This document shows positions 3,833 to 57,289 of a DNA stretch of 64,000 bases, one piece after another. Both the position numbers and the translations under genes were made by a program. Positions within the stretch are counted from its first letter, which is position 1. The number at the start of each line of letters is the position of its first letter. The notes below the pieces were generated by a model. The model searched no databases, was not told the DNA's origin, and saw only the letters and a list, made by a program, of their open reading frames with translations. The stretch is from contig JAIEOU010000003.1 in NCBI GenBank assembly GCA_019750255.1, positions 19,350 through 83,349 on the forward strand. The letters are read 5' to 3'. The stretch comes from Patescibacteria group bacterium. Lineage in GTDB: Bacteria; Patescibacteriota; Minisyncoccia; Phycocordibacterales; UBA918.

Positions 3833-6562
3833 ATGATAAGCCGCAACGAAATCCGTGTCCGGGCCAGGGAATTTTCAAAAGAATGGGAACGTGAGGTAGA
3901 CGAGGATGCTGAAGCTAAAAGTTTTTGGGACGCTTTCTTTATGGTGTTTGGTGTTTCCCGTCGCCGCGTTGCTGCCTTTGAACACTTCGTCCACAAACAA
4001 GACGGCGGGCAAGGGTTCATAGATGTGCTGTGGCCGGGAGTAATGCTCGCCGAGCACAAGAGCCGCGGCAAGAGTTTGGACCGCGCCTTTAGCCAAGCCA
4101 AGGATTATTTTCCTGGCCTCAAAGACGCCGAGCTCCCACGGTATGTGGTCGTATCTGACTTTGCCCTTATTCGGGTCTACGATTTGGATAACGATACGGA
4201 AGTTGAGTTCTCACTTTCCGACCTCGACAAACACATCGAACTCTTTGGATTTATATCCGGCTACGAAGTGCGTAAGTACGAAGCGGAAGAAGAGGCGAGT
4301 ATAAAAGCAGCAGAGCTCATGGCGAAACTTCACGAAGCGATTGAAGTGACCGGCTATAGCGGGCACGACCTCGAAGTGTTTCTCGTGCGTATACTCTTTT
4401 GTCTCTTTGCCGATGACACCGAGATATTTGAAAAGGGGAGTTTCAGGAGGTACATCGAGCAGCGCACGAGCGAAGAAGGGAGCGACCTTGGATTTCGCCT
4501 CCTTGAACTTTTTGACGTCCTCAACACTCCCGACGCAAAGCGCCAAACCACGCTTGATGAACAGCTGTCCGAGTTCCCCTACATCAACGGCGCAATCTTT
4601 GCTGAACGAATCGGGTCAATCACCCTCGACCACAAAGCACGAGCAACTCTTCTCACGTGTTGTGCCTTTAACTGGTCGGGTATATCAGCAGCTATTTTCG
4701 GCTCACTCTTCCAGGGGGTAATGAATAAGCAAGAGCGTCGTGAACTAGGTGCTCACTATACAAGCGAGATCAATATCATGAAGGTGATTCAACCCCTTTT
4801 CCTCGATGAGCTCTACAACGAATTCGATGCCGCAAAGAAAAGCGCAAAGGCCCTCGATTCCTTCCACCAAAAACTGGCGAGCCTTACCTTCCTCGATCCA
4901 GCCTGCGGCTGTGGCAACTTCCTCGTTACCACCTATCGCGAGCTTCGTCGTCTCGAAATTCAGGTACTGTTGAAAAAGCGGAAGCACAATACGAACACTC
5001 TCCTCGCCTTCGGAGCCGGTGAACTTTCGCGCCTTCATGTAAACCAGTTTTACGGAATTGAGATTGAGGAGTTTCCTGCACTCGTTGCTCGTACTGCCAT
5101 GTACCTGGCCGACCACCAAATGACGCGTGAACTGCAAAAAGAGTTCGGGCAAGAGAAGGCCCGTATCCCACTACAGGAGCCGGCAACCATTGTGCACGGG
5201 AACGCTCTTACCATTGAGTGGGCAGAAGTAATTGCTCCGGAGAAACTTTCGTATATTATCGGCAACCCACCGTTTCTGGGCCAGACCTATCAAAGCAAAC
5301 AGCAGAAAGAAGAAGTCGCAAAGGTACTGTCGGGAATAAAGAAAACAGGCACGCTCGATTTCGTATCTGCGTGGTATGGGAAAGCTGCCGATCTAATGAA
5401 GCAAAATCCTAAGATACAGACTGCACTAGTATCAACTAATTCCATCACCCAAGGTGAGCAGGTGGGTATTCTTTGGAAGTATCTACTGGAGAATGGGGTA
5501 AAAATTAACTTCGCTCACCAGACTTTCCGCTGGACGAACGACGCAAAGGGCAAGGCGGCGGTACACTGCGTCATTGTCGGTTTTGCACTTTTCGATAAAC
5601 CTACCAAATGGCTTTATCTATACTCGAATATAGACGGTGAGGGAACGGAGGTAGGGGTTAAAAACATAAATCCATATCTTGTTGATGGACCAAATATTCT
5701 TCTTGAGAGCCGAAGCAAGCCGGTTTGTAAAGCACCAAAAATGATTCGAGGCAGCCAACCAACGGACGGGGGCAACCTTTTACTCACACAAGAAGAAAAG
5801 GACACACTTGTCATGAATGACCCATTGGTTGCAAAATTCATACGACCATTCTTGATGGGTAACGAATTTATTAATAATATTAAACGTTACTGTCTATGGC
5901 TCAAAGATTGTTCGCCAAATGAACTCAAGGAAATGCCTGAAGTAATGAGACGAATAGAATCCGTTCGTAAAGTTAGACTAGCAAGTAAGAAAGCAGCGAC
6001 CCAAAAGTTAGCGTCTTTACCATTTCTTTTTGGAGAAATTAGAACATCTGAATCATGTTACCTTGCAGTACCAACTGTCTCATCAGAGAACAGAAGTTAT
6101 ATTCCAATCGGATTTTTGCCCCCAGATGTTATTGCGGGAAATAAAATATATTTCATACCCAACGCAAATATTTTTAACTTTGGAATCCTGACTTCAAAGA
6201 TGCACATGGTCTGGACTCGATACACATGTGGCCGGCTGAAAAGTGATTACAACTACTCTAATAAAATTGTCTACAACAACTTCCCGTGGCCAGGGTGTGG
6301 TGCAAATGTCACTGACCTAAGTGTAGAAGCGAAAGAAAAAATCGAAGCCGCAGCGCAAGCAGTACTCGATGCTCGTGCCCAGTTCCCAAACTCATCCCTC
6401 GCCGATCTCTACGATCCACGCACCATGCCACCAGTACTCGTAAAAGCTCACGCCGCCCTCGACCGTGCCGTCGATGCCGCCTACAGCTACCGCGACACTG
6501 GCCTCGACGCCGACCGCATTGCTTTCTTGTTTGAGCGTTACCAAAAAATTATTAATTCTTAA
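3833..6562 (+). CDS. MmeI-family type IIL restriction-modification enzyme (fused endonuclease, N6-adenine methyltransferase and target-recognition domain)
   Basis: The N-terminus matches MmeI (MISRNEIRVRAREFSKEWE...AKSFWDAFFMVFGV...). A PD-ExK-like motif GFIDVLWPGVMLAEHK is present. MTase motif I is FLDPACGCGNFL and motif IV is GNPPFLG. Length is 909 aa versus MmeI at about 919 aa. Confidence 0.85.
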   Translation: MISRNEIRVRAREFSKEWEREVDEDAEAKSFWDAFFMVFGVSRRRVAAFEHFVHKQDGGQGFIDVLWPGVMLAEHKSRGKSLDRAFSQAKDYFPGLKDAELPRYVVVSDFALIRVYDLDNDTEVEFSLSDLDKHIELFGFISGYEVRKYEAEEEASIKAAELMAKLHEAIEVTGYSGHDLEVFLVRILFCLFADDTEIFEKGSFRRYIEQRTSEEGSDLGFRLLELFDVLNTPDAKRQTTLDEQLSEFPYINGAIFAERIGSITLDHKARATLLTCCAFNWSGISAAIFGSLFQGVMNKQERRELGAHYTSEINIMKVIQPLFLDELYNEFDAAKKSAKALDSFHQKLASLTFLDPACGCGNFLVTTYRELRRLEIQVLLKKRKHNTNTLLAFGAGELSRLHVNQFYGIEIEEFPALVARTAMYLADHQMTRELQKEFGQEKARIPLQEPATIVHGNALTIEWAEVIAPEKLSYIIGNPPFLGQTYQSKQQKEEVAKVLSGIKKTGTLDFVSAWYGKAADLMKQNPKIQTALVSTNSITQGEQVGILWKYLLENGVKINFAHQTFRWTNDAKGKAAVHCVIVGFALFDKPTKWLYLYSNIDGEGTEVGVKNINPYLVDGPNILLESRSKPVCKAPKMIRGSQPTDGGNLLLTQEEKDTLVMNDPLVAKFIRPFLMGNEFINNIKRYCLWLKDCSPNELKEMPEVMRRIESVRKVRLASKKAATQKLASLPFLFGEIRTSESCYLAVPTVSSENRSYIPIGFLPPDVIAGNKIYFIPNANIFNFGILTSKMHMVWTRYTCGRLKSDYNYSNKIVYNNFPWPGCGANVTDLSVEAKEKIEAAAQAVLDARAQFPNSSLADLYDPRTMPPVLVKAHAALDRAVDAAYSYRDTGLDADRIAFLFERYQKIINS

Positions 6563-7419: not shown

Positions 7420-8030
7420 GGTACGACACCAGGTGGAATTCGACTAGTGCGACGATATGGGAAATGGTATTCAGAGAGACCTCACTGTTTTCGTGTGTAA
7501 TGAAACGCGAATTCCGACAGCTGGGGGAAGGTGCCACGGGACCACAGTACGCATGTACCGTATGCGGCCGTTAGTTCATTTTGGTCTGAGAGCGTACCAC
7601 TCGTCCGCCGCTATGTGTTCCATGGCTTGCCGAAGTCTCCAGCATTAGCCCATTACATATATACGTATAGGCGCAAAAGCCCTGGTATCTAAGCGAAGTA
7701 ACGTGAGGCGTGCTCCAAGCCCAAGAAACGTCCGTTCACACAAACCGTTACCTAACGTGGTTACACACCAAGCGCTGGCCGTGGCCGCGGAACAGTGTTT
7801 CATGCGAATACCGGAACAGCACTCTGACCTGCGTAACCATGATGACCGCGGGGTCAAAACGAGGGGGTCTGTTGACAGGGTCGTCAGTATTGCGTGTGGC
7901 TTGCTTTTTTAAATAAAGTATGCTATAGTTCTTGCAACCTTCGCGGTTATTATTGGCACGTAGACCTCTGCTCCACTTGTGTGGGCGTATCTAATAGGAA
8001 AGCGTGCCGCGATCTCATTTACACACATAT

Positions 8031-8297
8031 ATGTTAACGAAACGAGTAAAAGAAAACGTGCTTAAAAACACTCGCCGTCACGATAGTGATACGGGTTCAC
8101 CAGAGGCACAAGTAGCCCTCCTCACTCGTCAGATTGAAGAGCTCTCTACCCACCTCAAAAAGCACAAGAAGGATTTCCACTCACGTCGTGGTCTCCTCCA
8201 GATCGTGGCCGACCGCCGCAAGCAGCTCAATTACCTCGAGAAGAAAGATGAAAAAGCCTACAAGGCACTGATCAAGAAGCTCGGTATCAAGCGCTAA
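8031..8297 (+). CDS. rpsO: 30S ribosomal protein S15
   Basis: MLTKRVKENVLKNTRRHDSDTGSPEAQVALLTRQIEELSTHLKKHKKDFHSRRGLL... at 88 aa (internal Met of ORF 8004..8297). A TTGACA...TGcTATAGT promoter lies at about 7865-7930. Confidence 0.9.
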   Translation: MLTKRVKENVLKNTRRHDSDTGSPEAQVALLTRQIEELSTHLKKHKKDFHSRRGLLQIVADRRKQLNYLEKKDEKAYKALIKKLGIKR

Positions 8298-8413: not shown

Positions 8414-8517
8414 CGTACGCTTGTTTCTGCGACCTGGAGCAACGGAAACATTTGGAGTATAGTAAGTACGCAGCGGAGATTTTAATAAACGAAGGACGTA
8501 ATTTACATAATAACTAT

Positions 8518-9150
8518 ATGGGAGTCATCAGACACCCCGATCAACGTGTAGCGATTTTAATTGATACACAGAACCTCTACCACAGTGCGAAGAACCTCTA
8601 CAAGTCCAAAGTAAATTTTGGAGCAGTGGTGAAGCAAGCGCTCGGAGGTCGCAAACTTATTCGCGCCGTGTCGTACGTGGTGAATACCGAAAGTGGGGAA
8701 GAGCAACCATTCTTTGAAGCCCTCGAGAAAGTCGGCATTGAAATTAAAACGAAGGACCTCCAAATCTTTTACGGGGGTGCGAAGAAAGCCGACTGGGATG
8801 TTGGTCTCGCGGTTGACGCCATCAAGCTTGCGCAAAAAGTTGACGCTATTATCTTAGCCTCTGGCGATGGTGACTTTGTCCCGATGGTGGAATACGTAAA
8901 GAGCCAGGGCTGCCAAGTTGAAGCAATTTCGTTTGGTCGTTCCTCATCATCAAAGTTGCGTGAAGTTGTTGACGACTTCATCGATATGGATGAACACCCT
9001 AGTGACTTCCTCATCAGCTACAAAGGTGGCCCGCGCCGAGCTTCATTGGCAGGTCGCACCGAAGGCAGAGGTGAGGGGTCGAGCCGCGCCAAGAATGAGC
9101 TCCGCAACGAAATCCAAAAAGTAGTTGGAACGGACACCGATAATCTTTAG
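8518..9150 (+). CDS. NYN-domain (LabA/YacP-like PIN-fold) putative ribonuclease
   Basis: MGVIRHPDQRVAILIDTQNLYHSAKNLY...AIILASGDGDFVPMVEYVKSQGCQVEAISF is typical of NYN/LabA. The start is taken at an internal ATG of ORF 8452..9150. Confidence 0.6.
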   Translation: MGVIRHPDQRVAILIDTQNLYHSAKNLYKSKVNFGAVVKQALGGRKLIRAVSYVVNTESGEEQPFFEALEKVGIEIKTKDLQIFYGGAKKADWDVGLAVDAIKLAQKVDAIILASGDGDFVPMVEYVKSQGCQVEAISFGRSSSSKLREVVDDFIDMDEHPSDFLISYKGGPRRASLAGRTEGRGEGSSRAKNELRNEIQKVVGTDTDNL

Positions 9151-9232
9151 GAGCAAAAATTTAAAACCGCCGCTATGGTAGGCTTGTCGCGGACTGTTAC
9201 ATCCCTAAAACGCACATGAGAAGGAAGGTGTG

Positions 9233-10096
9233 ATGCCGTTAATTCCTCGACCTGCCTACCGCCTCACAAAAGAGATAACCATTGTCGGCCATGATTTATT
9301 TGGTCGTCGAGCCAGTGTCGAATTAATTCCACATGAACTTTCCGGTATATATGTGGATGTTGGTAAAGACGAGCCGGTTCTCGTTACCCCCGAGAATCTC
9401 ACCAGCAGTCGGTGCTCACTACACTTCACCTGTGATGGGTTCAAGATTCGAAACATCGGACCACTGCTCGCACTGCGCTGGTGGGTTGACGGCTTCACCA
9501 TCAGGACCGCAACCGGGTGGCTGCCATTCGATGGTACCGCCCAGGTGTTTCTCGGGGCAGTACACCAGAGTGCCGCAGTAGCCGAAGAAGGCACTCTGCT
9601 GCCATTCGGTCTGCCACAGCCCTGGTGCCTCGGCGAAGCCACGGTGCACGCATGGATATTCATTTCAGAATCGGCTGAGTCTGATACCGACCTCAAGCTT
9701 ACTGTCGGTTACGACCGACTTAGGCACGCACACGGGGCAATGGCCATAAGCCATGAAAGGAAATTTTCCCGCGATGACTTTCCCGACATCGCGTGCGCAC
9801 GAGGCTTTGGCTACCCCCAGTCTCTGCGTCCACTGAGTGCCCTGGCTGCACGCAGTGGCCTCTGGCGACATCACCACCACTTCCTCTGGACAGACGCGCA
9901 AAGAGACGCCACCACCTGGGAGCTCGTAGTGGACGAGGCTCTTCGGCACCGTGAGCTTAACCTCCTCGCATGCCTGGCCAGCGCACTACCGCCGGGATAC
10001 TTTCCCATCGGAACGGTCACGTCCCTCAACGGCAGTCTCGCCAAGGAACTCAATATGGCAGCTCTACTGCACCGGATGGGACGAGCCCGAACTTGA
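9233..10096 (+). CDS. LpxC-like (UDP-3-O-acyl-GlcNAc deacetylase fold) protein, probably non-canonical
   Basis: WLPFDGTAQVFLGAV matches the LpxC E(V/I)PIMDGSAxPF motif. The N-terminal ITIVGHDLFGRRASVELIP aligns with LpxC GVGLHTGKKVTLTLRP. The region is about 62% GC versus a local value of about 50%. A strong SD aaggaagg precedes the ATG. Confidence 0.4.
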   Translation: MPLIPRPAYRLTKEITIVGHDLFGRRASVELIPHELSGIYVDVGKDEPVLVTPENLTSSRCSLHFTCDGFKIRNIGPLLALRWWVDGFTIRTATGWLPFDGTAQVFLGAVHQSAAVAEEGTLLPFGLPQPWCLGEATVHAWIFISESAESDTDLKLTVGYDRLRHAHGAMAISHERKFSRDDFPDIACARGFGYPQSLRPLSALAARSGLWRHHHHFLWTDAQRDATTWELVVDEALRHRELNLLACLASALPPGYFPIGTVTSLNGSLAKELNMAALLHRMGRART

Positions 10097-10205
10097 TGGA
10101 CTCCACTCTCGCGAAACAACAGTACACCGCCTGCGTTGCCCGAGTGGCACTGCAGGCGGTCGTTTGTTATGCTCGTAGTGTTATTCATATTTTATTGTCG
10201 GGTGG

Positions 10206-10263
10206 CAGGTGCGCGCGTACAGAGAGCGCACAATAGTCTGGCGCTTTTAAACGCGCGCACCTG
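10206..10263 (+). promoter_or_regulatory. pnp 5'-leader long hairpin (candidate RNase III autoregulatory site)
   Basis: A 13-bp stem caggtgcgcgcgt/acgcgcgcacctg encloses an inner hairpin, about 20 nt upstream of the pnp ATG. Confidence 0.35.
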
Positions 10264-10280
10264 CACCGAACAAACGTTTC

Positions 10281-12395
10281 ATGCAGAAAAAAACCTACGA
10301 GATTGAAGTGGGCGGGAAGCTACTGACAGCTGAATTCAACGACCTAGCTCCACAGGCGAGCGGCTCAGTGATGCTGCGCTACGGCGAGACCGTGGTTCTC
10401 GTGACGGCAGTGATGGGGCAGAAGAATGTACCGATGCCTTACTTTCCTCTCTCGGTAGAGTTTGAAGAAAAGTTTTATGCTGCCGGTGCAATCTTGGGTA
10501 GTCGCTTTGTTCGTCGTGAAGGGAAGCCGAGCGACGAGGCGGTCTTGTCGGCCCGAATTGTCGACCGGACCATTAGACCATTGTTTCCCGCTCACCTCCG
10601 CAAAGAGGTACAGGTGGTGGTGATGGTGCTGGCCATTGGTGAGGAAGACCCCGATCTGCTTGGCATCATCGGTGCCTCGCTGGCGCTCGGTGTTTCGGAT
10701 ATTCCGTGGATTGGTCCGGTTGCGGCGGCCCGAGTGACCCGCGCGGTTCATAGCGACGTGCTGGAGATTAATGCAAACTACAGCAGCCGCACTGAAGGGG
10801 CGACCGATTTTGAAGTGCTGGCGTGTGGCCGCTCCGGCAGTATTAATATGATTGAAACTTCCGCACGGGAGATGGATGAAGCGACGATCATCGCCGCGCT
10901 TGAGGCCGCTGCACCGGTACATGCTGCGCTTGAGGCTTGGCAGAAAAGTATTATTGCCGAGCGTGGTGTACCAAAGCGAGCTCACGCCGAGCCGCAATTT
11001 CCCGAGTTGCTTACGGAACACTTCGCTACGGCATTTCACGACCGTCTTTACAGCACCCTATTCTCGGGCACTACCGGCAAGAGTCACCTCTACACACTGA
11101 AAGACGAATTTGTTGCCAGTTGCGCTACCTCCCTCGCCGACCTCACCCCCGCACTGTGCGCAGACTTCTTCGAACACCAGCTTGACCAACTCATCCACAA
11201 GGGGGCGGTGGAGGAAGGAAAACGTGCTGACGGTCGACCGCTCGATGCCGTGCGTGAGATTTTTGCACAAGCCGGCGGCGTTTCTCCGGTACTGCATGGA
11301 AGTGGAATTTTCTACCGCGGCGAAACGCACCTCTTTTCTGCTCTGACCCTCGGGGGACCTGATGCAGCGCAACTCGTCGACACCATGGAAGAGCGTGACG
11401 CTAAAAAACGCTTCATGCACCACTACAACTTCCCGCCTTTTTCGGTGGGAGAGGTGGGTAAGGTGGGTGGTCAAAACCGCCGCATGATTGGGCACGGCGC
11501 ACTGGCGGAGAAGGCACTTGCCCCAGTGATTCCAAAGGCAGCCGACTTTCCGTATACGATTCGACTGGTCTCGGAAACCCTCTCGAGTAACGGATCAAGT
11601 TCCATGGCTTCGGTCTGTGCCTCCACTCTCGCATTAATGGACGGCGGAGTCCCTATTACACGACCCGTTGCGGGTATCGCTTCGGGTGTCATGTTCCACA
11701 ATGGAAAGTATGCGCTCCTTACTGACATTCAAGGACCAGAAGACGAATATGGCGACATGGACTTCAAGGTTGCTGGAACCAGCAACGGTATCACCGCCAT
11801 GCAAATGGACGTAAAAATAGAGGGTGTTCCAATTGCCATCCTTGGTGAAGCGTTAGAGAAGGCCCGCCTAGCCCGGCTAGCAATTCTCGCGGCCATGACC
11901 ACGGCAATCGCTGCCCCACGACGAACCATCTCGCCCCGTGCCCCAGAGATTGTGACACTACAGATACTCCCTGAACAAATAGGTCTCGTGATTGGCGGGG
12001 GTGGTAAGACTATTAACAGTATAAAGGCTGATGCTGGTGTAGAAGAAATTACTATCGAAGAAGATGGCCAGATATTTATAACTGGACGACGTGGTACGGC
12101 CGGTATTGCCGCGGACCGCATCCGCGCCCTGACTCGTCGGTACACTGTCGGAGAGCGAGTGAGCGCCACCATAACTAAACTCGCACCGTTTGGGGCGTTT
12201 GCTAAGATTGATGCGTATAATGACGGACTCATCCATATATCGGAAATTGCCGACGTGCACGTTGACACCGTCGAGGGACTTCTCATCGTTGGCGAAACCC
12301 TCCCGGTGATTATTTCCAAGGTTGAAAATGGAAAGATTGGTCTTTCTATTAAGCAGGCAGATGCGCAGTTTTACACCACGCGCACCCAACCTTAG
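10281..12395 (+). CDS. pnp: Polyribonucleotide nucleotidyltransferase (PNPase)
   Basis: 704 aa with two RNase PH domains, a KH domain (GGGGKTINSIK) and a C-terminal S1 domain. Confidence 0.95.
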   Translation: MQKKTYEIEVGGKLLTAEFNDLAPQASGSVMLRYGETVVLVTAVMGQKNVPMPYFPLSVEFEEKFYAAGAILGSRFVRREGKPSDEAVLSARIVDRTIRPLFPAHLRKEVQVVVMVLAIGEEDPDLLGIIGASLALGVSDIPWIGPVAAARVTRAVHSDVLEINANYSSRTEGATDFEVLACGRSGSINMIETSAREMDEATIIAALEAAAPVHAALEAWQKSIIAERGVPKRAHAEPQFPELLTEHFATAFHDRLYSTLFSGTTGKSHLYTLKDEFVASCATSLADLTPALCADFFEHQLDQLIHKGAVEEGKRADGRPLDAVREIFAQAGGVSPVLHGSGIFYRGETHLFSALTLGGPDAAQLVDTMEERDAKKRFMHHYNFPPFSVGEVGKVGGQNRRMIGHGALAEKALAPVIPKAADFPYTIRLVSETLSSNGSSSMASVCASTLALMDGGVPITRPVAGIASGVMFHNGKYALLTDIQGPEDEYGDMDFKVAGTSNGITAMQMDVKIEGVPIAILGEALEKARLARLAILAAMTTAIAAPRRTISPRAPEIVTLQILPEQIGLVIGGGGKTINSIKADAGVEEITIEEDGQIFITGRRGTAGIAADRIRALTRRYTVGERVSATITKLAPFGAFAKIDAYNDGLIHISEIADVHVDTVEGLLIVGETLPVIISKVENGKIGLSIKQADAQFYTTRTQP

Positions 12396-12454: not shown

Positions 12455-14164
12455 ATGGCCGAGTCGAAACCAACGATGCTCCCGCGAGTTCGTACCTTTG
12501 CGAGCGATCTAGAAAATGAACGCAAAAAGCGCGGCCTTGCCGCGCCCGTTGACGATGCGGCCTCGAAACCAAGCGCACCCGCTGATCCGACAAAAGTCCC
12601 CGTGCCGACCCCCCGCAAAGTCCCTACTCCTGTCGCCATCCCACCAGTTAGAACGGCAGAAGCTGGACCAAAGCCAATCAGTCATATCGTAGCGGCCGCA
12701 CCACGACCCACGAGCGTATCAGCTGCAGTACTGGCCACTCGCGCCGACGAAATGAAGAAAGAATCTGATGCGCGGCCTACTTCAGTCCCCTCGTTTCATG
12801 AGCTAATGAAACGAAGTGGGAAACCCCACGCTTCGCCCTCAGTAACTCCCGAACGCGGGGGTGTCATGGGCATTACCATAACCAATGATGAAAGTGGCGC
12901 CACCATCATCACCGACACCAAGGCTGATCGCTTTAAAGTTGCTCCCAGTATTTTTATATCAATAAAAAAATGGTGGGCAAAAAACCAGGCTGACCGCAAG
13001 GCCCGTCGGGCTCCTAAGTACGTTGTGCCCGAAACAGATCGTCGAAAGGGTATCATCCAACAAGCTACCTCACATAGCGGAAAGGCGATTACAGATGACC
13101 GCGCCCAGCTGCGTGACCAGGTTCTCCGACGCAATACACAGAAGGAACACGAGCCCGACACCACGAAGACGGGAAGCACCGAGGCCGGGTCTCGCCCGAG
13201 CGCACCACCTGATGATGGGGGAGTCGTAAACGTACAGGTAACACCAAAGCAACGTGGTGAGGAACGGCCACGACCAGTGCTGCCGCCGGTTGAGGTTCCT
13301 GCAGTTGTTCGTGCACCACTACCTCCACCCCCGCCACTGTCCATCCCTGTCGCCGTACCGCCGCCGGTTGTCGCTGCTGCCCCTTTGCGACCGACCCAAG
13401 AAGCGACGCCTATCACTGAAAAAAAAGTAACCGCAACCAGTGCCCCGGTGATTGCAATGAGGCAAGAGGCAGTAGGGCCAGAGACTCAGCTGCGGCCAAG
13501 CGCACCAACTGGTCGCCTTACCACTAACCTTCTCTCTGGCAGCGTGGTCGCTTTGATTGTATTTATTGCGGTCGGTGGCGTTGGCGTATACCGCTTCCTG
13601 AACACACCACCACCCCCGCCACCACCGGTATATGAGGGAGTGCTACTGAGCGCCCCGACGCTAAAAATTTCACTTCCGATACTCGACCGAGCCGCATTCA
13701 TGCAGTCTCTCGCAATTGCGAGCGATACCCGGTCCGTACCGGTCATTGAACTCTTCTTCATTAACGACACGGTTGTGGTACCATCTGCCGACCTCTTGTC
13801 ACTTTTCAGTCCCACCATTAATCAGAACTTGGCTCAAAATGTACGTTCAGTGGTCTTTGGTTGGTACAACAAAGACATCCCCTTTATGGTGCTTGATATC
13901 GCCGACCGCTCGAGCGTCTGGGGCGGACTCCTTAAAGAAGAAGCCAGGCTGCAAAGCACCCTAGCTCCGTTCTTCACTTTCCCAACCCCGCTTGATGGGG
14001 GGTTCATCGATCGTAAAATTAGCATCTACGACATCCGCCTCCTCGTCGACAAAACTGGCAACGAGCACCTCGCCTACAGTTTCATAAATGACAACACGGT
14101 GATTATCACTAAAAATCACGAGACGCTCTTGTTACTAGCTACCCTCGCAGGTGCCGGGAAGTAG
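12455..14164 (+). CDS. Hypothetical proline-rich single-pass membrane protein
   Basis: Long Pro/Ala-rich N-terminal region, a TM helix LLSGSVVALIVFIAVGGVGVYRFL, then a PPPPPPP run and a C-terminal globular domain. A leaderless-type promoter (gatact 7 nt upstream of the ATG) precedes it. Confidence 0.4.
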   Translation: MAESKPTMLPRVRTFASDLENERKKRGLAAPVDDAASKPSAPADPTKVPVPTPRKVPTPVAIPPVRTAEAGPKPISHIVAAAPRPTSVSAAVLATRADEMKKESDARPTSVPSFHELMKRSGKPHASPSVTPERGGVMGITITNDESGATIITDTKADRFKVAPSIFISIKKWWAKNQADRKARRAPKYVVPETDRRKGIIQQATSHSGKAITDDRAQLRDQVLRRNTQKEHEPDTTKTGSTEAGSRPSAPPDDGGVVNVQVTPKQRGEERPRPVLPPVEVPAVVRAPLPPPPPLSIPVAVPPPVVAAAPLRPTQEATPITEKKVTATSAPVIAMRQEAVGPETQLRPSAPTGRLTTNLLSGSVVALIVFIAVGGVGVYRFLNTPPPPPPPVYEGVLLSAPTLKISLPILDRAAFMQSLAIASDTRSVPVIELFFINDTVVVPSADLLSLFSPTINQNLAQNVRSVVFGWYNKDIPFMVLDIADRSSVWGGLLKEEARLQSTLAPFFTFPTPLDGGFIDRKISIYDIRLLVDKTGNEHLAYSFINDNTVIITKNHETLLLLATLAGAGK

Positions 14165-21294: not shown

Positions 21295-21304
21295 GTAATG
21301 TTCT

Positions 21305-23035
21305 ATGAAAACTCTTAACTTTCACTATTTCAATAAGCTCGTCTTTGGTTTTGTCTTCGTCCTGTTTGCGTTTACTACGGTATATATTCCACAGGACCAC
21401 ACACCGAGAGCGGAGGCACAAAACGTTGACCCCGCAGCGGTAGTCCAGCGAGAACGAGGGTGGTTCCAGTCACTCCTCGACTCTGTAAGCTTGACCGGAA
21501 CCTTTAAATCGGGCCTTGCTTCACTTGGTATTAACACCGCACAGTGGAGCGTGACGAGCATATTAAACGGTCTGGCCTGGGCCGCAGCCAAAAACATCCT
21601 TTCGATGATTCAGCGCGATATTGTGCGCTGGATTAATTCTGGTTTCCAAGGGAGTCCCGCGTTTATCCAAGATCTGGGAGGGTTTATCACCAACATAGCC
21701 GACGAAACGGCGGGGCAGTTGATTCAAGAAATCGGCGGGCCCTTATCGTTCGTATGTTCGCCGTTTCAGTTAGACGTACGAATTGCTGTTGCCTCCGCCT
21801 ATAACCGTACCCGCGATAAGAATGCTCGGCGATGTACCCTCACCGGCGCTCTGCAGAATATTCAAAACTTTATCGGCGGCGATATGAATCAAGGTGGCTG
21901 GGATTCATGGATTAGAATTGTGCACCAACCACAGTCTTACACTCCGCTCGGCTCTGCCCTCGATGCGAGCGCAGAGCTTGGTATCCGAATTCGTACCGCT
22001 CAAGGTCGCGAGGTAAACCTGCTTAACTGGGGCGGGGGATTCATGTCGAGCAAGGTTTGCGAAACAGTACCAGGCCCAAGTGGTGACGAGGAAAAATGCC
22101 GTGTTTCAACACCAGGTAATGTTATTGCCAACCAACTCAACCGGAGTTTAGGTCTTGGCGACGAATCGCTCATAGCCGCCGATCAGATTAACGAAATCAT
22201 TGGCGCTCTGATGCAACAGATGGTGAAGCAAGTACTAACCGGGGCAGGGGGGCTCCTCGGTGCGGGCGGTGGACAAGGCAGTAACTCCAAGTACACTGAT
22301 CCTAATTTCAACGTTGACCTCTTTACCGCAAAGACAGAGATTCAGGCAAATAGTAACGAGGGTCGGAAACTAATGATTGAAGCCTTTGCTGCTGAAAGTG
22401 AATTCTTAGATTTAGCGCAGAGCTTTATCGTTCGATACCAAAATGAGTACTCTGCTGATGGTGCGGTACAGGCAAGAGCAGCCGCCGCTTACAATGAGGC
22501 TCGTGAAGTCTTACCAAAGATACAAGACAATCTCACAAAGCTGCAAGCTATCCTTGCCAACTTTGACAGCGCGCCGAATTCTCAGGTGCAACAACAAGTT
22601 CTCCAGGACTTCACCGCCCAGTTTGCTTCGTTTAGCAACCAAATTCAGGTTGACGCAGCGCGCGAGCGGTGGATATCCGCCTTTATTGGCATGGGACCTC
22701 GACCAACGCCAGTAGCAGACAGCGTACTCGATAGTGCGGGTGAGGCGCTTTCAATCGAGGAGCTGTATCTGGATCTCGTTAATTCGGCTATTGACCAATA
22801 CGAAACACTGACAAACCCCAGTCCCGCAGAAAAGGTGGCGTACAATGAGGCTTTCGCTATCCTACCTGACATTCAACGTAACGTAATTGATCTACGAGAC
22901 ATCATTGACGCTCTTAAGGCCGGCGACAATGATGCCGAGGCGGACTTTACAGCCATTAAGCCTGACCTCCACACTGAAGTGGAGGTGACAAAAGCCCGCG
23001 TTGACTGGGAAGCGGCGCTCGGTACTTTACCGTAA
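21305..23035 (+). CDS. Hypothetical secreted protein (signal peptide; Gln/Ala-rich C-terminal half)
   Basis: Signal peptide MKTLNFHYFNKLVFGFVFVLFAFTTVYIP. 576 aa. Confidence 0.45.
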   Translation: MKTLNFHYFNKLVFGFVFVLFAFTTVYIPQDHTPRAEAQNVDPAAVVQRERGWFQSLLDSVSLTGTFKSGLASLGINTAQWSVTSILNGLAWAAAKNILSMIQRDIVRWINSGFQGSPAFIQDLGGFITNIADETAGQLIQEIGGPLSFVCSPFQLDVRIAVASAYNRTRDKNARRCTLTGALQNIQNFIGGDMNQGGWDSWIRIVHQPQSYTPLGSALDASAELGIRIRTAQGREVNLLNWGGGFMSSKVCETVPGPSGDEEKCRVSTPGNVIANQLNRSLGLGDESLIAADQINEIIGALMQQMVKQVLTGAGGLLGAGGGQGSNSKYTDPNFNVDLFTAKTEIQANSNEGRKLMIEAFAAESEFLDLAQSFIVRYQNEYSADGAVQARAAAAYNEAREVLPKIQDNLTKLQAILANFDSAPNSQVQQQVLQDFTAQFASFSNQIQVDAARERWISAFIGMGPRPTPVADSVLDSAGEALSIEELYLDLVNSAIDQYETLTNPSPAEKVAYNEAFAILPDIQRNVIDLRDIIDALKAGDNDAEADFTAIKPDLHTEVEVTKARVDWEAALGTLP

Positions 23036-23053
23036 CAGCCGCACATCTCTTAC

Positions 23054-25273
23054 ATGACACGCCTGCGCCAGCTCAATTTTCTCTACTGCCTATCACTCTG
23101 TCTTGTAGTGCTGGTTTTGGTACTGCCAACCCTCGTGTCGGCTCAGCAGGGTGGTGCTCCTGTTACCGCCTCAGAACAAAACACGCTTATGATGCGGGTG
23201 CTCTGGTGGATAGTCGCATCCGTCTTTGGCGGCCTTACCTGGGCTACTGGTTTACTCCTCGACTATAGTATTAGGGAGCTGGTAATTAATTTCGGTAGCC
23301 TCTACCAAACCTCAGGTTTAGGAGTAGCAGTAAACAACCTCTGGGGAGTGGTGCGCGATCTATTCAACCTCACGTTTATCTTCGGGCTCATTTATATTGG
23401 GTTCCGCATGATTATCAATAGCGATGACAGCGGGGCCAAGAAGGCGATCGTTAACCTGATTATCGCGGCACTGCTCGTTAACTTCAGTCTGTTTATCACG
23501 AAAACCGTCATCGATTTTTCCAATATTGCAGCGGTCCAGATCACCCAAGTAATATACCGGGGCGGAACCGCCACCAACCAATCCATCAGTGTAGCGTTTG
23601 GTGTCCAGATGGGACTCTCGAGTCTCTGGGGACAGACCCAAGAGCAAGCAAATACAGCACGTCTACAAACAGGGGGAGATCTGCCAGGACAAGGGGGGCT
23701 GCTCTATATATTTGGGGCGATGATCCTCTTTTTGATTGCAGCATTTTGTTTTGCGGCGGGAGCAATACTCCTCTTTGTCCGCTTTATTGCCCTGAATATC
23801 ATGATGATTCTTTCTCCCATCATGTTCCTTGGCCGAGTGTTTGAACCACTGCAGACCTATTCCTCTGCCTATTGGAAGAAGTTCCTGAGCTACTGCTTTT
23901 TTGCCCCAGCGTTTCTTTTAATGCTGTATTTCTCTCTCTATATCCTCGGTCAATTCACTGGCTCTATCCGCAATTCAAGTGGCCTCGCGGCCGAGCTTGG
24001 TCCAGGCGCCACTGGAGTTAACGCAATTGCAGCACTGCTGATGTCAGGCGGGTTCCTGATCGCCTCAGTGCTGGTCGCGCAAAAGATGAGTGGGGCAGCC
24101 GGAAGCATGACGGTTAAGGTGGGAAACAACCTGCGCGAGCGGGGACAGCGTATGATTGGTGCCTCAACGTTTGGAGCTGGCGCCTACGTCGGCCAAAGGA
24201 CTCTCGGTCGCGCCAGTGCCCGACTGTCTGACTCAGATACCATGAAGAACTGGGCATCGAGAAACCCAACAATGGGTAGAGCTGCGCTCAAGGTTACAAG
24301 TGCAGTAGGGGATGCATCATTTGATGGACGCGCCGCTCTCGCGGCAGCAGGTGTTAAAGGTCTTGGTAGTGCAACCAAGGGAGGCTATGAAACGCGCATG
24401 AAGGAAGCCGCTAAATCTGATAGGGAGTTTGCTGATACTCTCGGTGAGCAAAAGCTTGCTGACGCGGCGACACAAGCCGGAAGAACAGAACGAGCTTCAC
24501 AAATTGCTCCGGCAATAGCCACGATTAAGGCCGACTCAACAACCGAAGGTACCGCTGGCTACGAACTTAAGCAGACAGAGACTAAGCAGGCGAATGCACG
24601 AACAGTCACCTTAGCGGCTAATAATGAATTGTCTTCGATACAGCAAAACAGTAGAGCAGCCCAAGAGCCAGAACTCCAGAAGATTGCACTCTACCAAGAA
24701 CAGTTAGCCGCTGCGACAGACCCGACAGTGATAGCGAGCCTTAAGGATAAAATTAAAGCCAGCACCGACAAAGCTAAGGAGATTGAAGGAAATTTTGATA
24801 CTGCCACTAAAGCAGCGCAACAGAAAGTTACTGCTGCCCAGGCAGCCGAAAAAGGTATCGAGGCTCAGATTAAGTCAATCAATGACAAAATTGCCAAACA
24901 AGCGGAAGCGCGGTTTACCTATGCTCGCCAACTTACACTCATTGAGAGCCGAAAAAAGAGTCGCGATCGCTACACCGTAAAACTTCCTCGTGCCGTTAGT
25001 GGTGGAGCGGGCGCGGCCGGAGCGGCAGCCGCAGGGGCAGGTTTGTACGCAGCTGGGACTGCCGGGGCAGGGGCACTGGCTCTTGGTAGTGTCGTAAATT
25101 CGTATGGTGAAAGCTATGGCGCTCAAGTGGAAGCGTTAGAAAAAACCTACGGCAAAGACGGGACTAAGAAAATAAAAGCTTCGGAGCAAAAGAATAAAAT
25201 GAAAGAGCTCGGTGAAGTTTTGAAAGAAGAAGGGGTGATACCTAAAGAAAAGAAAGCTGATAAGGATGATTAA
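23054..25273 (+). CDS. VirB6/TrbL-like polytopic membrane protein with long C-terminal coiled-coil/Ala-rich tail
   Basis: Signal peptide followed by at least 6 TM helices, then a hydrophilic region of about 350 aa (KAKEIEGNFDTATKAAQQKV...). This architecture is typical of monoderm T4SS VirB6 homologs. Confidence 0.5.
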   Translation: MTRLRQLNFLYCLSLCLVVLVLVLPTLVSAQQGGAPVTASEQNTLMMRVLWWIVASVFGGLTWATGLLLDYSIRELVINFGSLYQTSGLGVAVNNLWGVVRDLFNLTFIFGLIYIGFRMIINSDDSGAKKAIVNLIIAALLVNFSLFITKTVIDFSNIAAVQITQVIYRGGTATNQSISVAFGVQMGLSSLWGQTQEQANTARLQTGGDLPGQGGLLYIFGAMILFLIAAFCFAAGAILLFVRFIALNIMMILSPIMFLGRVFEPLQTYSSAYWKKFLSYCFFAPAFLLMLYFSLYILGQFTGSIRNSSGLAAELGPGATGVNAIAALLMSGGFLIASVLVAQKMSGAAGSMTVKVGNNLRERGQRMIGASTFGAGAYVGQRTLGRASARLSDSDTMKNWASRNPTMGRAALKVTSAVGDASFDGRAALAAAGVKGLGSATKGGYETRMKEAAKSDREFADTLGEQKLADAATQAGRTERASQIAPAIATIKADSTTEGTAGYELKQTETKQANARTVTLAANNELSSIQQNSRAAQEPELQKIALYQEQLAAATDPTVIASLKDKIKASTDKAKEIEGNFDTATKAAQQKVTAAQAAEKGIEAQIKSINDKIAKQAEARFTYARQLTLIESRKKSRDRYTVKLPRAVSGGAGAAGAAAAGAGLYAAGTAGAGALALGSVVNSYGESYGAQVEALEKTYGKDGTKKIKASEQKNKMKELGEVLKEEGVIPKEKKADKDD

Positions 25274-25282
25274 TATTCACCT

Positions 25283-25816
25283 ATGAACCCAACTATTGCT
25301 GACGAACGCCTCTATCAAATCACCGACCCTGCCTATCGCGACTACATTTTAAGTGGCGACACGACTGACCTGGCTATTATTCTTGGCTCGACCCATAACT
25401 TAGACGAGCAGGCAGTGGGAGTACTTGAGAATGCGATTGATCTTTATCTTTTATGGCTCCTCGACGCCACCGGCCTGGCGACATTTATTAGTCGTCAATG
25501 CGACCTCTCATTAGATGATGCCGCGGTACTGGTTGCCGCTATAGACCTTGCCCTACCTGAAGACGTTCTCCAAGCACACGCACACCCAGAGGCGATGTTA
25601 CAGGCAGCTCCGTCACCAACTATTGCCACCGAAATTGCCGCCACCGAAGCCGCACTTGCGCACATCTCAACCGTGCGCACGATGGCGCGCGACATGGAGG
25701 ACCTAAAGAGCCAAGCACCGCAGGATAATGCTATCTATAAATCATCTCAAGATACCATTCGGCCCGACAGCACACAGGCCGACACCTCTCGGTGGGGTAG
25801 TGGTGCTCAAAAGTAA
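25283..25816 (+). CDS. Hypothetical acidic protein
   Basis: ORF in the operon with no recognisable motif. Confidence 0.35.
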   Translation: MNPTIADERLYQITDPAYRDYILSGDTTDLAIILGSTHNLDEQAVGVLENAIDLYLLWLLDATGLATFISRQCDLSLDDAAVLVAAIDLALPEDVLQAHAHPEAMLQAAPSPTIATEIAATEAALAHISTVRTMARDMEDLKSQAPQDNAIYKSSQDTIRPDSTQADTSRWGSGAQK

Positions 25817-25886
25817 CGAACACATGGGGATACCGGGAGCCGCTTCGTCATATAACGGAGCGGCTCCATGTATAATGAACTAATCT

Positions 25887-26309
25887 ATGCGTTTTGAGGT
25901 TCCTCAGTTTATCGAGATCGAAGACCGCATCATAGGTCCTTTTAGTTGGCGTCAGTTTTTGTATTTAGGCGGCGGTCTGGGCATGGGAGTAGTGCTCTTT
26001 TTAACGACGCCCTTTATCGTTTTTCTTCTCATCGGCCTTCCTCTCGCCGTTCTGGCGCTGGCACTGGCTTTTTATCCAATAAATAATCGACCTTTTTCTT
26101 TCTTCTTGGAGGCGATGTTTAACTACTTCTACAACCATCGTCTCTATCTGTGGCGCCGCAAAGAGCAGGTAATCTATAAAAAGGAACCGGCCCCAAGCAC
26201 CGTGGTCGATGATCTTACCACCACAAGTACACAGAAGCCCCGACATCAGTCCATTTCCTCCCTGTCTCGCCAACTCGAACTGCAAGCACTCCAAAAAAAA
26301 GATTTATAA
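25887..26309 (+). CDS. PrgI/VirB3-like small 2-TM membrane protein
   Basis: RQFLYLGGGLGMGVVLFLTTPFIVFLLIGLPLAVLALALAF gives two adjacent TM helices. It lies immediately upstream of VirB4, the conserved VirB3/PrgI position. Confidence 0.45.
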   Translation: MRFEVPQFIEIEDRIIGPFSWRQFLYLGGGLGMGVVLFLTTPFIVFLLIGLPLAVLALALAFYPINNRPFSFFLEAMFNYFYNHRLYLWRRKEQVIYKKEPAPSTVVDDLTTTSTQKPRHQSISSLSRQLELQALQKKDL

Positions 26310-26312
26310 CCT

Positions 26313-26948
26313 ATGCCCAAAGCCACTCCAGCCAGCCAAGAATTCGTTAGTATTCGCGACATCCGCGAGGGTGTTGTGATGTTAAAAGGGGGACAGACGT
26401 GCAGCGTTCTACTGGCTTCTTCCATAAATTTTGCCTTAAAGTCACAAGACGAACAGCGTGCAATCTTGCTCCAGTTCCAAAACTTTCTCAACACGTTAGA
26501 TTTTTCAATTCAAATCTATGTACAATCTCGCCGCATGAACATCGAGCCCTACCTAGAGCTCTTACGAACACGAGAGGGGGATCAGGACAATGACCTGATG
26601 CGCGTACAGCTACGGGAATACATGGAGTTCGTCCGTACTTTTACCACCGAAGTCGACGTCATGACCAAAAGCTTCTTTGTTATAGTGCCTTACACACCAG
26701 CGCCACTTAATCTTTCAAAAAACCTGGGGTCATTCTTGGCGCAAGGCAAGTCAGCCCCCGCAACGACAGAGACGCGCTTCGAAGAACAGCGTGTTGCGCT
26801 TGAGCAGCGCATTGCGATTGTGAAGCAAGGACTCGATCGTATCGGCGTTCGCACGATTGCCCTTGGCAATGACGAGCTCGTTGAATTTTATTACCACATA
26901 TACAACCCCGGTGATCCTACCTCAAGCGCGCCCTCAGCCGACGTCTAA
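26313..26948 (+). CDS. VirB4/TrbE/CagE-family ATPase, N-terminal domain (separated from the ATPase domain by an in-frame TAA)
   Basis: IRDIREGVVMLKGGQTCSVLLASSINFALKSQDEQRAILLQFQNFLNTLDFSIQIYVQS matches the CagE_TrbE_VirB N-terminal pattern. It is in the same frame as 26958..28754. Confidence 0.55.
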   Translation: MPKATPASQEFVSIRDIREGVVMLKGGQTCSVLLASSINFALKSQDEQRAILLQFQNFLNTLDFSIQIYVQSRRMNIEPYLELLRTREGDQDNDLMRVQLREYMEFVRTFTTEVDVMTKSFFVIVPYTPAPLNLSKNLGSFLAQGKSAPATTETRFEEQRVALEQRIAIVKQGLDRIGVRTIALGNDELVEFYYHIYNPGDPTSSAPSADV

Positions 26949-26957
26949 TTAATAATT

Positions 26958-28754
26958 ATGGGTATTTTTGATATTTTAAAACCGTCACAGAAGAACGATA
27001 CCGTCACCGATTTGGCAGACCACCTCCTCACCATCACTGATGTGATTGCACCATCGGCGGTACAAATTGGACCTCGTAGCATCAGTATTGGTGGGGTAAA
27101 CGCGCGGGTTTTTTACGCCGTTGCCTACCCACGCTATCTGACCGACGGCTGGCTCCAGCCGGTGACAAACCTCGAGCGAGAACTCGATATATCTATTTTC
27201 ATTCACCCGGTCAACACGGCTGATATGTTGAAGAAGTTCCAGAAGAAAGTAGCCGAGGTACAGAGCCAGATTCACATGAAAGCCGACAAGGGTGAGGTGC
27301 GCGATCCTCAACTCGAAGCCGCCTACCAAAACCTTGAAGATTTGCGCGACAAGCTCCAGCAATCAGAAGAGCGCCTCTTTGATGTAGGCTTCTATATCAG
27401 TGTCTACGGCCAAGATGAAGCCGCGCTCAACAAGGCTGAAAATGAAATTAAAGGCCTTCTTGATTCTCGCCTTATATACATAAAGCCGGGTTACTTCCAG
27501 CAAGAGCCGGGAATGAAGAGTATTGTGCCGGTAGCACAAGACGAACTACTCGTTCATAGTAAATTTAACTCTTCACCGCTCTCTAGTTTTTTCCCGTTCA
27601 CGTCTTTCGATTTAACATCCGATAACGGCATCCTCTATGGCATCAATCGCCACAATTCCTCCTTGGTACTGTTTGACCGCTTTAGCCTTACAAACTACAA
27701 CTCGGTCACCTTTGCCACCTCTGGAGCAGGGAAGTCCTATGCACTGAAGCTGGAAATCTTACGATCGCTGATGTTCGGAACCGAAGTAATTGTGCTCGAC
27801 CCAGAACGCGAGTACGAATACCTGGCCGAAGCCACTGGTGGGCGCTTTTTCAACATCTCCCTTTCGTCTGACCACCACATCAATCCCTTTGACCTACCCG
27901 CCCCGCAAGAAGACGAAAACCCCCAAGACATCTTACGCAGTCACGTGGTTGAACTCATTGGTCTCTTTCGGTTGATGTTGGGCGGTCTCGCTCCTGAAGA
28001 AGAAACCATTATTGACCTCGCCATCCATGAAACCTACGCGCTTAAAGATATCTCTGGTGACACTGATTTTTCAAACCAAGAACCCCCACTTCTCTCTGAC
28101 TTTGAAATGGTACTTGCTGGCATGGACGGCAGCGCTTCCTTGATTACCCGCCTACAGAAGTACACATCGGGTACTTGGTCAGGCTTCATGAACAAAGCTA
28201 CCAATGTTGATATCAACCAGAAGTTTGTGGTGTTTTCACTACGTGATATGGAGGATGAACTCAAAACCATCGCGATGTACATTGTGACCAACTTCATTTG
28301 GAGTGCCGTTCGTCGCCGCCTGACCAAGCGCCTCCTTGTTATCGACGAGGCTTGGTGGATGATGAAGTCAGAAGATACGGCTTCATTCCTCTTTAGTCTA
28401 GCCAAACGAGGTCGTAAGTACTATTTGGGAATCGCGACAATTACCCAGGATGTCGATGACTTTCTTCGCTCTCCGTACGGAGTACCGATGATTACGAACT
28501 CTTCTATTCAGCTGCTCATGAAGCAATCACCAACAGCCATTGACAACATTCAGCGCACCTTCAATCTTACTGATGAAGAAAAGTTCTTACTTTTGGAGTC
28601 GGGGGTAGGGGAGGGAATATTCTTTGCCGGACTCAAGCACGTAGCCATAAAAATTATCGCCTCCTACACAGAAGATCAAATCATCACGTCTGACCCATCA
28701 CAATTACTACAAATTAAGCGTGCCCGTGCCGAGCTTCGTGCTGCTCGACCGTAG
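26958..28754 (+). CDS. VirB4/TrbE/CagE-family T4SS ATPase, C-terminal ATPase domain
   Basis: Walker A TFATSGAGKSYALK and Walker B LLVIDEAWWMM. C-terminal ITQDVDDF and other VirB4 motifs. 598 aa. Confidence 0.8.
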   Translation: MGIFDILKPSQKNDTVTDLADHLLTITDVIAPSAVQIGPRSISIGGVNARVFYAVAYPRYLTDGWLQPVTNLERELDISIFIHPVNTADMLKKFQKKVAEVQSQIHMKADKGEVRDPQLEAAYQNLEDLRDKLQQSEERLFDVGFYISVYGQDEAALNKAENEIKGLLDSRLIYIKPGYFQQEPGMKSIVPVAQDELLVHSKFNSSPLSSFFPFTSFDLTSDNGILYGINRHNSSLVLFDRFSLTNYNSVTFATSGAGKSYALKLEILRSLMFGTEVIVLDPEREYEYLAEATGGRFFNISLSSDHHINPFDLPAPQEDENPQDILRSHVVELIGLFRLMLGGLAPEEETIIDLAIHETYALKDISGDTDFSNQEPPLLSDFEMVLAGMDGSASLITRLQKYTSGTWSGFMNKATNVDINQKFVVFSLRDMEDELKTIAMYIVTNFIWSAVRRRLTKRLLVIDEAWWMMKSEDTASFLFSLAKRGRKYYLGIATITQDVDDFLRSPYGVPMITNSSIQLLMKQSPTAIDNIQRTFNLTDEEKFLLLESGVGEGIFFAGLKHVAIKIIASYTEDQIITSDPSQLLQIKRARAELRAARP

Positions 28755-28768
28755 TACAATAAGCGAAC

Positions 28769-29518: not shown

Positions 29519-29583
29519 CTGCCTCTGGTATTCGCAGCCCTCTGCCGTGTTCAAAAATAACATTTCTGAGCGGTCGTACTGGT

Positions 29584-30552: not shown

Positions 30553-30556
30553 ACTT

Positions 30557-32486: not shown

Positions 32487-32541
32487 CGTCTGCCAGCAGG
32501 TCTCTTCTACTCCTCTTTTTTCCTTTCTCAAACTTAAAGTG

Positions 32542-55440: not shown

Positions 55441-55444
55441 ATGA

Positions 55445-56308: not shown

Positions 56309-56398
56309 TTATTGATTATAATGCTTGATTGCTTTCTGGACACCCTCTATTGTGTCTTATAAAAATATGATGAGCATAGCTACTTATTTGCGATAAAT

Positions 56399-57172: not shown

Positions 57173-57289
57173 GAAGTTCGCCCGTTCAAAAGAACGGGGC
57201 GACCACTAGTATAGGGGTAAAAGGCGAAACTGTTAACAGGGGAGGGGAAAATGATAGAGGCAGAGTGTTTCGGTTACTCTGACGGATTT

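Follow-up and report, generated by a model that had tools for sequence, protein, structure and literature searches.

A 64,000-nucleotide stretch of DNA from a Patescibacteria group bacterium (contig JAIEOU010000003.1; the whole stretch is called the window below) contains, 5' of pnp, a gene whose product has the fold of LpxC and has lost most of the LpxC active site. LpxC, a major target for antibiotics, is considered to serve only the committed step of lipid A synthesis. The window protein is probably something else, namely a structurally intact, catalytically dead pseudoenzyme that belongs to a divergent family of LpxC-like zinc deacetylases. It very probably cannot perform zinc-dependent deacetylation by the LpxC mechanism, because the glycine, proline, asparagine, and leucine that it has at four of the five zinc-ligand and acid/base sites cannot do this chemistry. 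A preliminary description of this DNA had offered two readings, a non-catalytic LpxC-like domain or a deacetylase repurposed for another substrate. The first is the one adopted here, given the LpxC fold and the replacement of residues that are intact across most of the family; the second suits the catalytically intact relatives, but not the window protein itself.

The gene and its homology to LpxC

The gene is a single, long, intact open reading frame (ORF) that ends at position 10096 on the forward strand. It specifies 287 amino acids if it begins with the ATG at 9233 and 288 if it begins with the in-frame GTG at 9230, from which the residues of the window protein are numbered here. The 287-residue form is 100% identical to the NCBI entry 'hypothetical protein K2Q16_00935 [Patescibacteria group bacterium]'. 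The position of a Shine-Dalgarno-like sequence, GAAGGAAGG, favours the ATG as the likely start, and the presence of this sequence suggests that the gene remains equipped for translation. Overlapping ORFs in the other frames of 9230 to 10096 have no support, and a scan of the 64 kb window with the family hidden Markov model (HMM) gave no second LpxC-like copy.

Direct searches with the window protein say nothing of its ancestry. By itself, it has no Pfam or NCBIfam match even at E values of 1 to 10, falling short of the curated thresholds for PF03331 and TIGR00325, and no sequence match in the PDB; a BLASTP comparison with E. coli LpxC gave noise only. Homology to LpxC is therefore visible only via relatives. 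A phmmer search run exhaustively over 1.84 billion cluster representatives produced 63 of these at E ≤1e-3, mostly full-length proteins of 260 to 300 amino acids, and 13 proteins at E ≤1e-10, with the window protein's own record counted among them. The sole close relative is P0003 (43-44% identity, E 9.4e-64); the others are 22-34% identical. A word-indexed search with the single protein found only its own record and P0002, and the same kind of search with the family alignment found 7 proteins only.

Once the family is used in place of the single sequence, the relationship becomes clear. The Pfam LpxC model (PF03331) is matched by 56 of the 58 aligned family members, with a best E value of 7e-16, and TIGR00325 is matched weakly by 31 (best E 1.9e-10). 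When the family profile is compared with the PDB, only LpxC chains are found, the best of them being Aquifex aeolicus LpxC (E 9e-21), and an hhalign comparison of the family with E. coli LpxC gives a probability of 98.6% over 258 columns. Furthermore, AlphaFold2 (AF2), run on the window protein with the 58-sequence alignment, gave a model with a mean predicted local distance difference test score (pLDDT) of 90.8 and a predicted TM score (pTM) of 0.90. In a Foldseek search of the PDB, the best 50 matches to this model are all LpxC (E 1.3e-14 to 3e-12, TM 0.67-0.75), and the two-domain beta-alpha-alpha-beta LpxC fold is present. The LpxC fold, which had been proposed beforehand, is thus confirmed at the level of the predicted structure, the profile search and the best 50 structure matches having given LpxC and no other fold. 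The segment WLPFDGTAQVF had also been correctly recognized as the LpxC loop: in the alignment, the E. coli counterpart of 'GWLPF-DGTAQVF' is 'PEIPIMDGSAAPF'.

Loss of the active site

The active-site residues are given below in E. coli LpxC numbering, with counts among the 58 aligned members of the family. The general base Glu78 is replaced by G77 in the window protein (Glu in 55 of 58), and the adjacent zinc ligand His79 by P78 (His in 55 of 58). The second zinc ligand, His238, is kept as H240 (His in 56 of 58), and the third, Asp242, has become N244 (Asp in 56 of 58). The catalytic His265 is L270 (His in 55 of 58), and its partner Asp246 is C248, at a position that is Ala in 41 members. The catalytic Thr191 is G192 (Thr or Ser in 36 of 58), and Lys239 is R241, the family having Arg here in all 58. 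One of the three zinc ligands is therefore left (P78, H240, N244), and four of the five zinc-ligand and acid/base residues are replaced (E78G, H79P, D242N, H265L), so that the protein would be unable to bind the catalytic zinc in the canonical manner. The full catalytic set (E-H, H, D, H) is found in 52-53 of the 58 members (~90%), including the positional ortholog P0003, and the window protein is the most degenerate of all.

These assignments refine what had been read from the sequence at first. The preliminary description held that none of the three zinc ligands aligns, which is true for His79 and Asp242, but not for His238. It had located the His79 stretch correctly (IGPLLALRW, in which G77-P78 replace E78-H79), and hhalign places 'NIGPLLALR' against E. 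coli 'TVEHLNAALAG'. However, it took WRHHHHFLWTD for the His238/Asp242 region, when the true region is RHRELN and the segment in question is a motif peculiar to the family, WPHx5W. In the window protein, this motif reads W212-R-H214-HHHFL-W220, with both tryptophans and the histidine kept and the proline replaced by arginine. It aligns to the approximate segment CLGGSFDCAIV of Insert II of E. coli LpxC, and H214 has no counterpart in canonical LpxC. The bulky loop, standing in place of small acyl-passage residues, suggests that the family may not take a 3-O-acylated substrate in the way that LpxC does. Y161 of the window protein is the equivalent of F161, the uracil-stacking residue of LpxC, and Tyr or Phe is found here in 56 of 58 members. 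The residue hints, if only weakly, that a ligand of the nucleotide-sugar type might still be recognized.

Compared with LpxC (PF03331, TIGR00325; PDB 4MDT, 1P42), then, the window protein is alike in its two-domain fold over the whole length, in its profile-level homology, and in retaining the P-x-D-G loop, an equivalent of H238, and the aromatic counterpart of F161. It differs in having G, P, N, and L at E78, H79, D242, and H265, in having no direct Pfam or NCBIfam match, in the WPHx5W loop that replaces a Gly/Ser-rich segment of Insert II, and in having no lpxA, lpxD, or fabZ neighbours in a host from the Patescibacteria, for which lipid A synthesis is not known. With the LpxC-like family (P0003, P0012, P0002), it shares length, fold, and the WPH-type loop, but it has G-P, H-R-E-L-N, and S-L-A-K-E where the family has E-H, H-R-x-x-D, and G-H-x-x-D. 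Judged by these motifs, the defining catalytic features fail, and the protein should not be annotated as LpxC.

Gene order and descent

The gene lies among genes for RNA metabolism, between an NYN-domain gene and pnp, with rpsO further 5' (Table 1). On the 3' side of pnp are genes for a Pro-rich protein of 569 amino acids, a DksA/TraR zinc-finger protein, and ComM. The order rpsO-NYN-LpxC-like-pnp-hypothetical-dksA-comM is also complete in L001, the locus that encodes P0003, and the loci L035 (which encodes P0012), L017, and L009 agree with it as far as their contigs reach. The NYN gene is kept in its place in L001, L035, and L017; L009 has no NYN match and has the LpxC-like gene and then pnp onwards. 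The LpxC-like genes of P0003, P0012, L017, and L009 are thus like that of the window in their position 5' of pnp, after NYN where this is present. The polynucleotide phosphorylases (PNPases) of L035, L017, and L009 are only 53-57% identical to that of the window, and a gene order common to loci this far apart argues for vertical descent, not a recent import from a high-GC organism. The window protein and P0003 also have derived residues in common, such as W85, I40, F66, and C248. On this evidence, the gene is a vertically inherited positional ortholog within a clade of Patescibacteria.

Acquisition from a high-GC donor, which had been suggested at first, is not supported, given the conserved synteny with distant loci and the near-constant, slight GC excess of the gene. 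The values are 0.571 for GC and 0.58 for GC at third codon positions, compared with 0.549 and 0.557 for pnp, and the small excess recurs in four of the five syntenic loci.

Table 1. Features of the window discussed in the text, with amino acid identity to the L001 ortholog
Feature	Position	Strand	Identity to L001	Basis or remark
rpsO (ribosomal protein S15)	8004..8297	+	86%	L001 ortholog PF00312
NYN-domain gene, immediately 5' of LpxC-like gene	8452..9150	+	95%	Pfam NYN 2.9e-33
Shine-Dalgarno-like GAAGGAAGG	9220..9228	+		Read from sequence; ends 4 nt before ATG 9233
LpxC-fold protein coding sequence	9233..10096	+	43%	ORF list, identity to NCBI protein P0001, AF2, Foldseek, hhalign
Codons G77-P78, replacing Glu78 and His79	9458..9463	+		Alignments, hhalign
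LPFDG, conserved (I/L)P(I/Y)xDG loop of LpxC	9521..9535	+		P99 invariant and G102 in 53/58 in family
WRHHHHFLW, family-specific WPHx5W motif	9863..9889	+		H214 in 54/58, W220 in 56/58
H240-R-E-L-N244, equivalent to LpxC H238-K-x-x-D242	9947..9961	+		His ligand kept, Asp ligand replaced by Asn
S269-L270-A-K-E273, replacing family G-H-x-x-D	10034..10048	+		Family H 55/58, D 55/58
Structured leader, LpxC-like gene to pnp	10097..10280	+		Minimum free energy -88.4 kcal/mol, z -6.75
pnp (polynucleotide phosphorylase)	10281..12395	+	84%	L001 ortholog with RNase_PH, KH, S1
569-aa hypothetical protein	12455-14164	+	57%	Pro/Ala-rich; no Pfam match
dksA			80%	
comM			89%	
TrbL/VirB6-like	23054-25273	+		Type IV secretion system cluster
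PrgI	25887-26309	+		Type IV secretion system cluster
VirB4/TraG P-loop ATPase	26958-28754	+		Type IV secretion system cluster
Type IV secretion system pilin	31737-32486	+		Type IV secretion system cluster

Two observations on the neighbouring sequences may be added. The 184 nt that separate the LpxC-like gene from pnp form a leader predicted to fold into two long hairpins rich in GC, with its z-score taken against shuffled sequences; it recalls the autoregulatory pnp leader of E. coli, which is processed by RNase III, and no Rfam family was matched by it. In addition, the product of the NYN-domain gene, a putative RNase, is conserved between the window and L001 far above its LpxC-like neighbour.

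Rate of change, and whether the gene is kept or decaying

Gene by gene, the LpxC-like protein is the least conserved between the window and L001 (Table 1), and its rate of nonsynonymous substitution (dN) is 0.49, compared with 0.035-0.12 for the housekeeping neighbours. The Pro/Ala-rich hypothetical protein is a second fast-evolving gene of the locus. Rapid change of the LpxC-like gene is seen elsewhere in the clade. Between L035 and L017, PNPase is 72% identical and the LpxC-like protein 30%, and both of these LpxC-like proteins have their His and Asp residues intact, L017 carrying D-H where E-H is expected. To judge from these identities, the gene evolves fast throughout the clade. The window branch is nonetheless long when set against its sister: its length is 0.64 versus 0.33 for P0003, a roughly twofold difference, and P0003 is nearer to 52 of the 56 outgroups. 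Of the 41 columns with 70% conservation or more in the family, 32 are kept by P0003 and 23 by the window protein. Relative to P0003, and in window numbering, there are ten losses specific to the window protein (E77G, H78P, Y100F, L153T, P213R, D244N, G247A, G269S, H270L, and D273E), nine of which lie in or beside the EH, PYDG, WPH, HRxLDxLG, and GHxxD motifs.

These findings could be taken to mean that the gene is simply decaying, the active site having been inactivated fairly recently and the frame being open only for want of time as the gene drifts toward loss. This explanation is less likely than a retained pseudoenzyme, but it is a serious alternative and the strongest of those considered. 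It would account for the loss of four catalytic and six further conserved motif residues, for the doubled branch, and for the low score of the window ORF with the family HMM (224.8 bits, compared with 266-305 for the other members). However, the sister has kept 32 conserved positions, and the absence of 10 of these from the window protein implies that substantial time has elapsed. In a neutral simulation started from the P0003 gene, which allowed substitutions only and ignored indels, the ORF was still open in 26% of runs at 10% amino acid divergence, in 6.5% at 20%, in 1.5% at 31%, and in 0% at 47%, so that few genes (the 1.5% of runs at 31%) would have survived such an interval by chance. 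Furthermore, the hydrophobic core is kept as well as it is in the intact relative P0003. A hydrophobic residue is found at 61 of 67 family core columns in the window protein and at 62 of 67 in P0003 (family mean 95%, minimum 88%), when the overall hydrophobic fraction of the window protein is 45%. The protein is collinear with its relatives over the full length, with no frameshift and with the glycine/proline framework kept, and the Shine-Dalgarno sequence is intact. Small Patescibacteria genomes are also expected to shed dead genes quickly. Taken together, the preserved core, the simulation, and the intact Shine-Dalgarno sequence favour continued selection for a folded protein.

It should be noted that several points weigh against a retained pseudoenzyme. 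With a recent inactivation (about 10% divergence), drift could well leave the frame open, as it did in 26% of runs. Synonymous changes (dS) are saturated in every gene compared between the window and L001, so that only dN is comparable and there is no proper dN/dS ratio. The confidence of the AF2 model owes largely to the family alignment rather than to the window sequence alone. A dead state conserved in a second ortholog would be the best proof of retention, but no close relative with the same dead motifs was found among 5.8 billion clusters or in JGI metagenome contigs, in which the window protein is a singleton, as a decaying gene might be. Finally, H240 and the run of four histidines, H214-H217, are still in place, and a non-canonical metal site is possible.

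In the pseudoenzyme model, the protein would be kept for a non-catalytic role, either binding without turnover of the acetylated or nucleotide-sugar-type ligand of the family or binding of a protein partner, and it would probably be co-expressed with the flanking genes for RNA metabolism (rpsO-NYN-pnp). It resembles pseudoenzymes generally in that the fold is kept, the losses fall specifically on catalytic residues, evolution speeds up afterwards, and the frame is open, but retention under selection is here inferred only.

A possible rebuilt metal site

The remaining histidines have to be considered in their own right, since the protein could in principle still be active as a metallohydrolase whose metal site has been rebuilt, in which H240 and H214-H217 would serve as ligands and some other residue as the base. 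Canonical LpxC has no counterpart of the WPH histidine, which 54 of 58 members carry. The loop is rich in histidine throughout the family and aligns to residues 207-214 of E. coli LpxC, a segment near the zinc at the entrance to the acyl passage. Against this, the intact relatives have the WPH histidine in addition to the canonical triad, and it is therefore no substitute for the triad. Nor does any acidic base replace E78, G77-P78 being unfit for the task, and L270 stands in place of the proton donor. The joint loss of functionally linked residues is instead the classic signature of a pseudoenzyme, and a rebuilt site is considered improbable.

Lipid A and the nature of the host

Families for lipid A, Kdo, Lpt, and Bam functions (including lpxA, lpxD, fabZ, lpxB, and kdsA) have no member among the 47 ORFs scanned in the 64 kb window, which bears out and extends the earlier remark that no other lipid A genes are nearby. 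The window encodes ClpB, a peptidoglycan-binding protein, an MmeI-type restriction-modification enzyme, an M23/LysM peptidase, UvrD, KsgA, and YidC, together with DnaA/DnaN, a class A penicillin-binding protein, TyrRS, RuvABC, PilB/PilM, DNA polymerase I, a Mur ligase, and UppS, and this gene content fits a Patescibacteria genome. Genomes of the candidate phyla radiation (CPR) have been stated to lack lpxC and kdsA (PMC5220378). The view that the host is a monoderm free of lipopolysaccharide (LPS) is consistent with the NCBI label, with the gene content of the window, and with that report, but it is unproven.

A genuine LpxC that acts in lipid A synthesis, with the ligand loss ascribed to misalignment or to sequence error, would explain the LpxC-like fold and PxDG loop, but it can be dismissed as extremely improbable: the alignment at all three motifs is unambiguous and anchored by 57 relatives, independent codon changes cannot come from a single error of assembly, the ORFs scanned in the window include no lpx, kds, lpt, or bam genes, the host is labelled by NCBI as belonging to a group reported to be without lipid A genes (PMC5220378), and even the intact relatives are weak matches to TIGR00325. 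The window protein and its family very probably have no part in lipid A synthesis in this organism.

The LpxC-like family

Loci of the family were sought with a hand-made degenerate DNA pattern over the genomes of GTDB species. Of the 23 loci obtained, about 18 carry the labels of Patescibacteria lineages (Saccharibacteria, Parcubacteria, Paceibacterota, or Taylorbacteria), and four are labelled Proteobacteria: two full-length (L015, on a 5.7 Mb alphaproteobacterial chromosome, and L012, on a Stellaceae contig), one fragment (L026), and one out-of-frame match (L014). The alphaproteobacterial members (L015 3656-4501; L012 2670-3470; L008) are catalytically intact and lie directly 3' of argJ and a MutT-type NUDIX gene. 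Because of these intact members, the family is not confined to the Patescibacteria. By its motifs, it is an uncharacterised, mostly Patescibacteria family of putative LpxC-like deacetylases, whose intact members are presumably active. Descriptions of CPR LpxC homologs or of an LpxC-fold pseudoenzyme were not found in the open-access papers that were searched.

Loss of the active site appears to recur within the family, since P0010, P0028, and P0039 each lack at least one zinc-ligand or acid/base residue (in P0010, H79N, H238N, and D242V); P0060 is altered only at E78, which is Asp. The neighbourhoods of the family, which include NAD_binding_1/RecG/malic enzyme, argJ/mutT in the Alphaproteobacteria, and a ZIP transporter, are too inconsistent to assign a substrate. 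The last of these is a single, anecdotal link to zinc: on one metagenomic contig (L007, 380-2012), the first 11 nt of a ZIP-family zinc transporter gene are shared with the LpxC-like gene (P0005). A role in anti-phage defence was considered and rejected, as PADLOC matches none of the 58 members.

A broader model can be put forward only tentatively, and it is rather less likely than the pseudoenzyme assignment by itself. In this model, the family is a fast-evolving branch of LpxC in the Patescibacteria and some Alphaproteobacteria that would act as a zinc deacetylase on a substrate other than lipid A, for example an acetylated amino sugar of the cell wall or of host origin. In one clade of Patescibacteria it would have become embedded in an rpsO-NYN-pnp operon, and the window protein would derive from it as a pseudoenzyme that binds a ligand or has a regulatory role. 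LpxC homologs that stand apart from an LPS pathway have a precedent, as orphan lpxC or 'lpxC2' paralogs occur in monoderm Bacillota from which the rest of the LPS pathway is missing, and a role unrelated to lipid A has been proposed for them (PMC11448272). The window gene is like these in being a singleton LpxC homolog outside an LPS pathway, but it belongs to another phylum, and the Bacillota genes are not reported to be catalytically dead.

Other features of the window

Elsewhere in the window, a type IV secretion system cluster of the Gram-positive type extends from about 21300 to 32500 on the forward strand, its genes (Table 1) being interspersed with several ORFs that have no Pfam match. 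The MmeI-family type IIL restriction-modification enzyme (3833-6562, forward strand) is complete, with all five MmeI domains. The dnaA and dnaN genes lie at 34140-36914 on the forward strand, the cumulative GC skew has its minimum at about 35-36 kb, and this region is probably the chromosomal replication origin. A patch of low GC content at 55000-57700 (0.37-0.44, compared with about 0.50), which contains a DUF6671 gene (55445-56308, reverse strand) and two 87-nt tRNAs, may be an island or an integration hotspot.

Implications

The presence of LpxC-fold proteins in the Patescibacteria conflicts with the description of the CPR as being without lpxC (PMC5220378). An LpxC-fold family with an intact zinc site in LPS-free, lipid-scavenging episymbionts implies a second chemistry for this fold. 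Furthermore, the dead window copy and the intact P0003 amount to a natural experiment, as they occupy the same operon position and four of their neighbours are 84-95% identical, and a comparison of the two could reveal the ligand of the family and any role of the non-catalytic form. Should the gene only be decaying, little of interest would be left apart from the fact that the family exists. If the window protein is indeed a pseudoenzyme derivative, it would be the first LpxC-fold pseudoenzyme to be described and would offer a handle on the chemistry of the CPR cell envelope or of interaction with the host. Most of the interest lies in the family that has been exposed in this way and in its pair of intact and dead orthologs.

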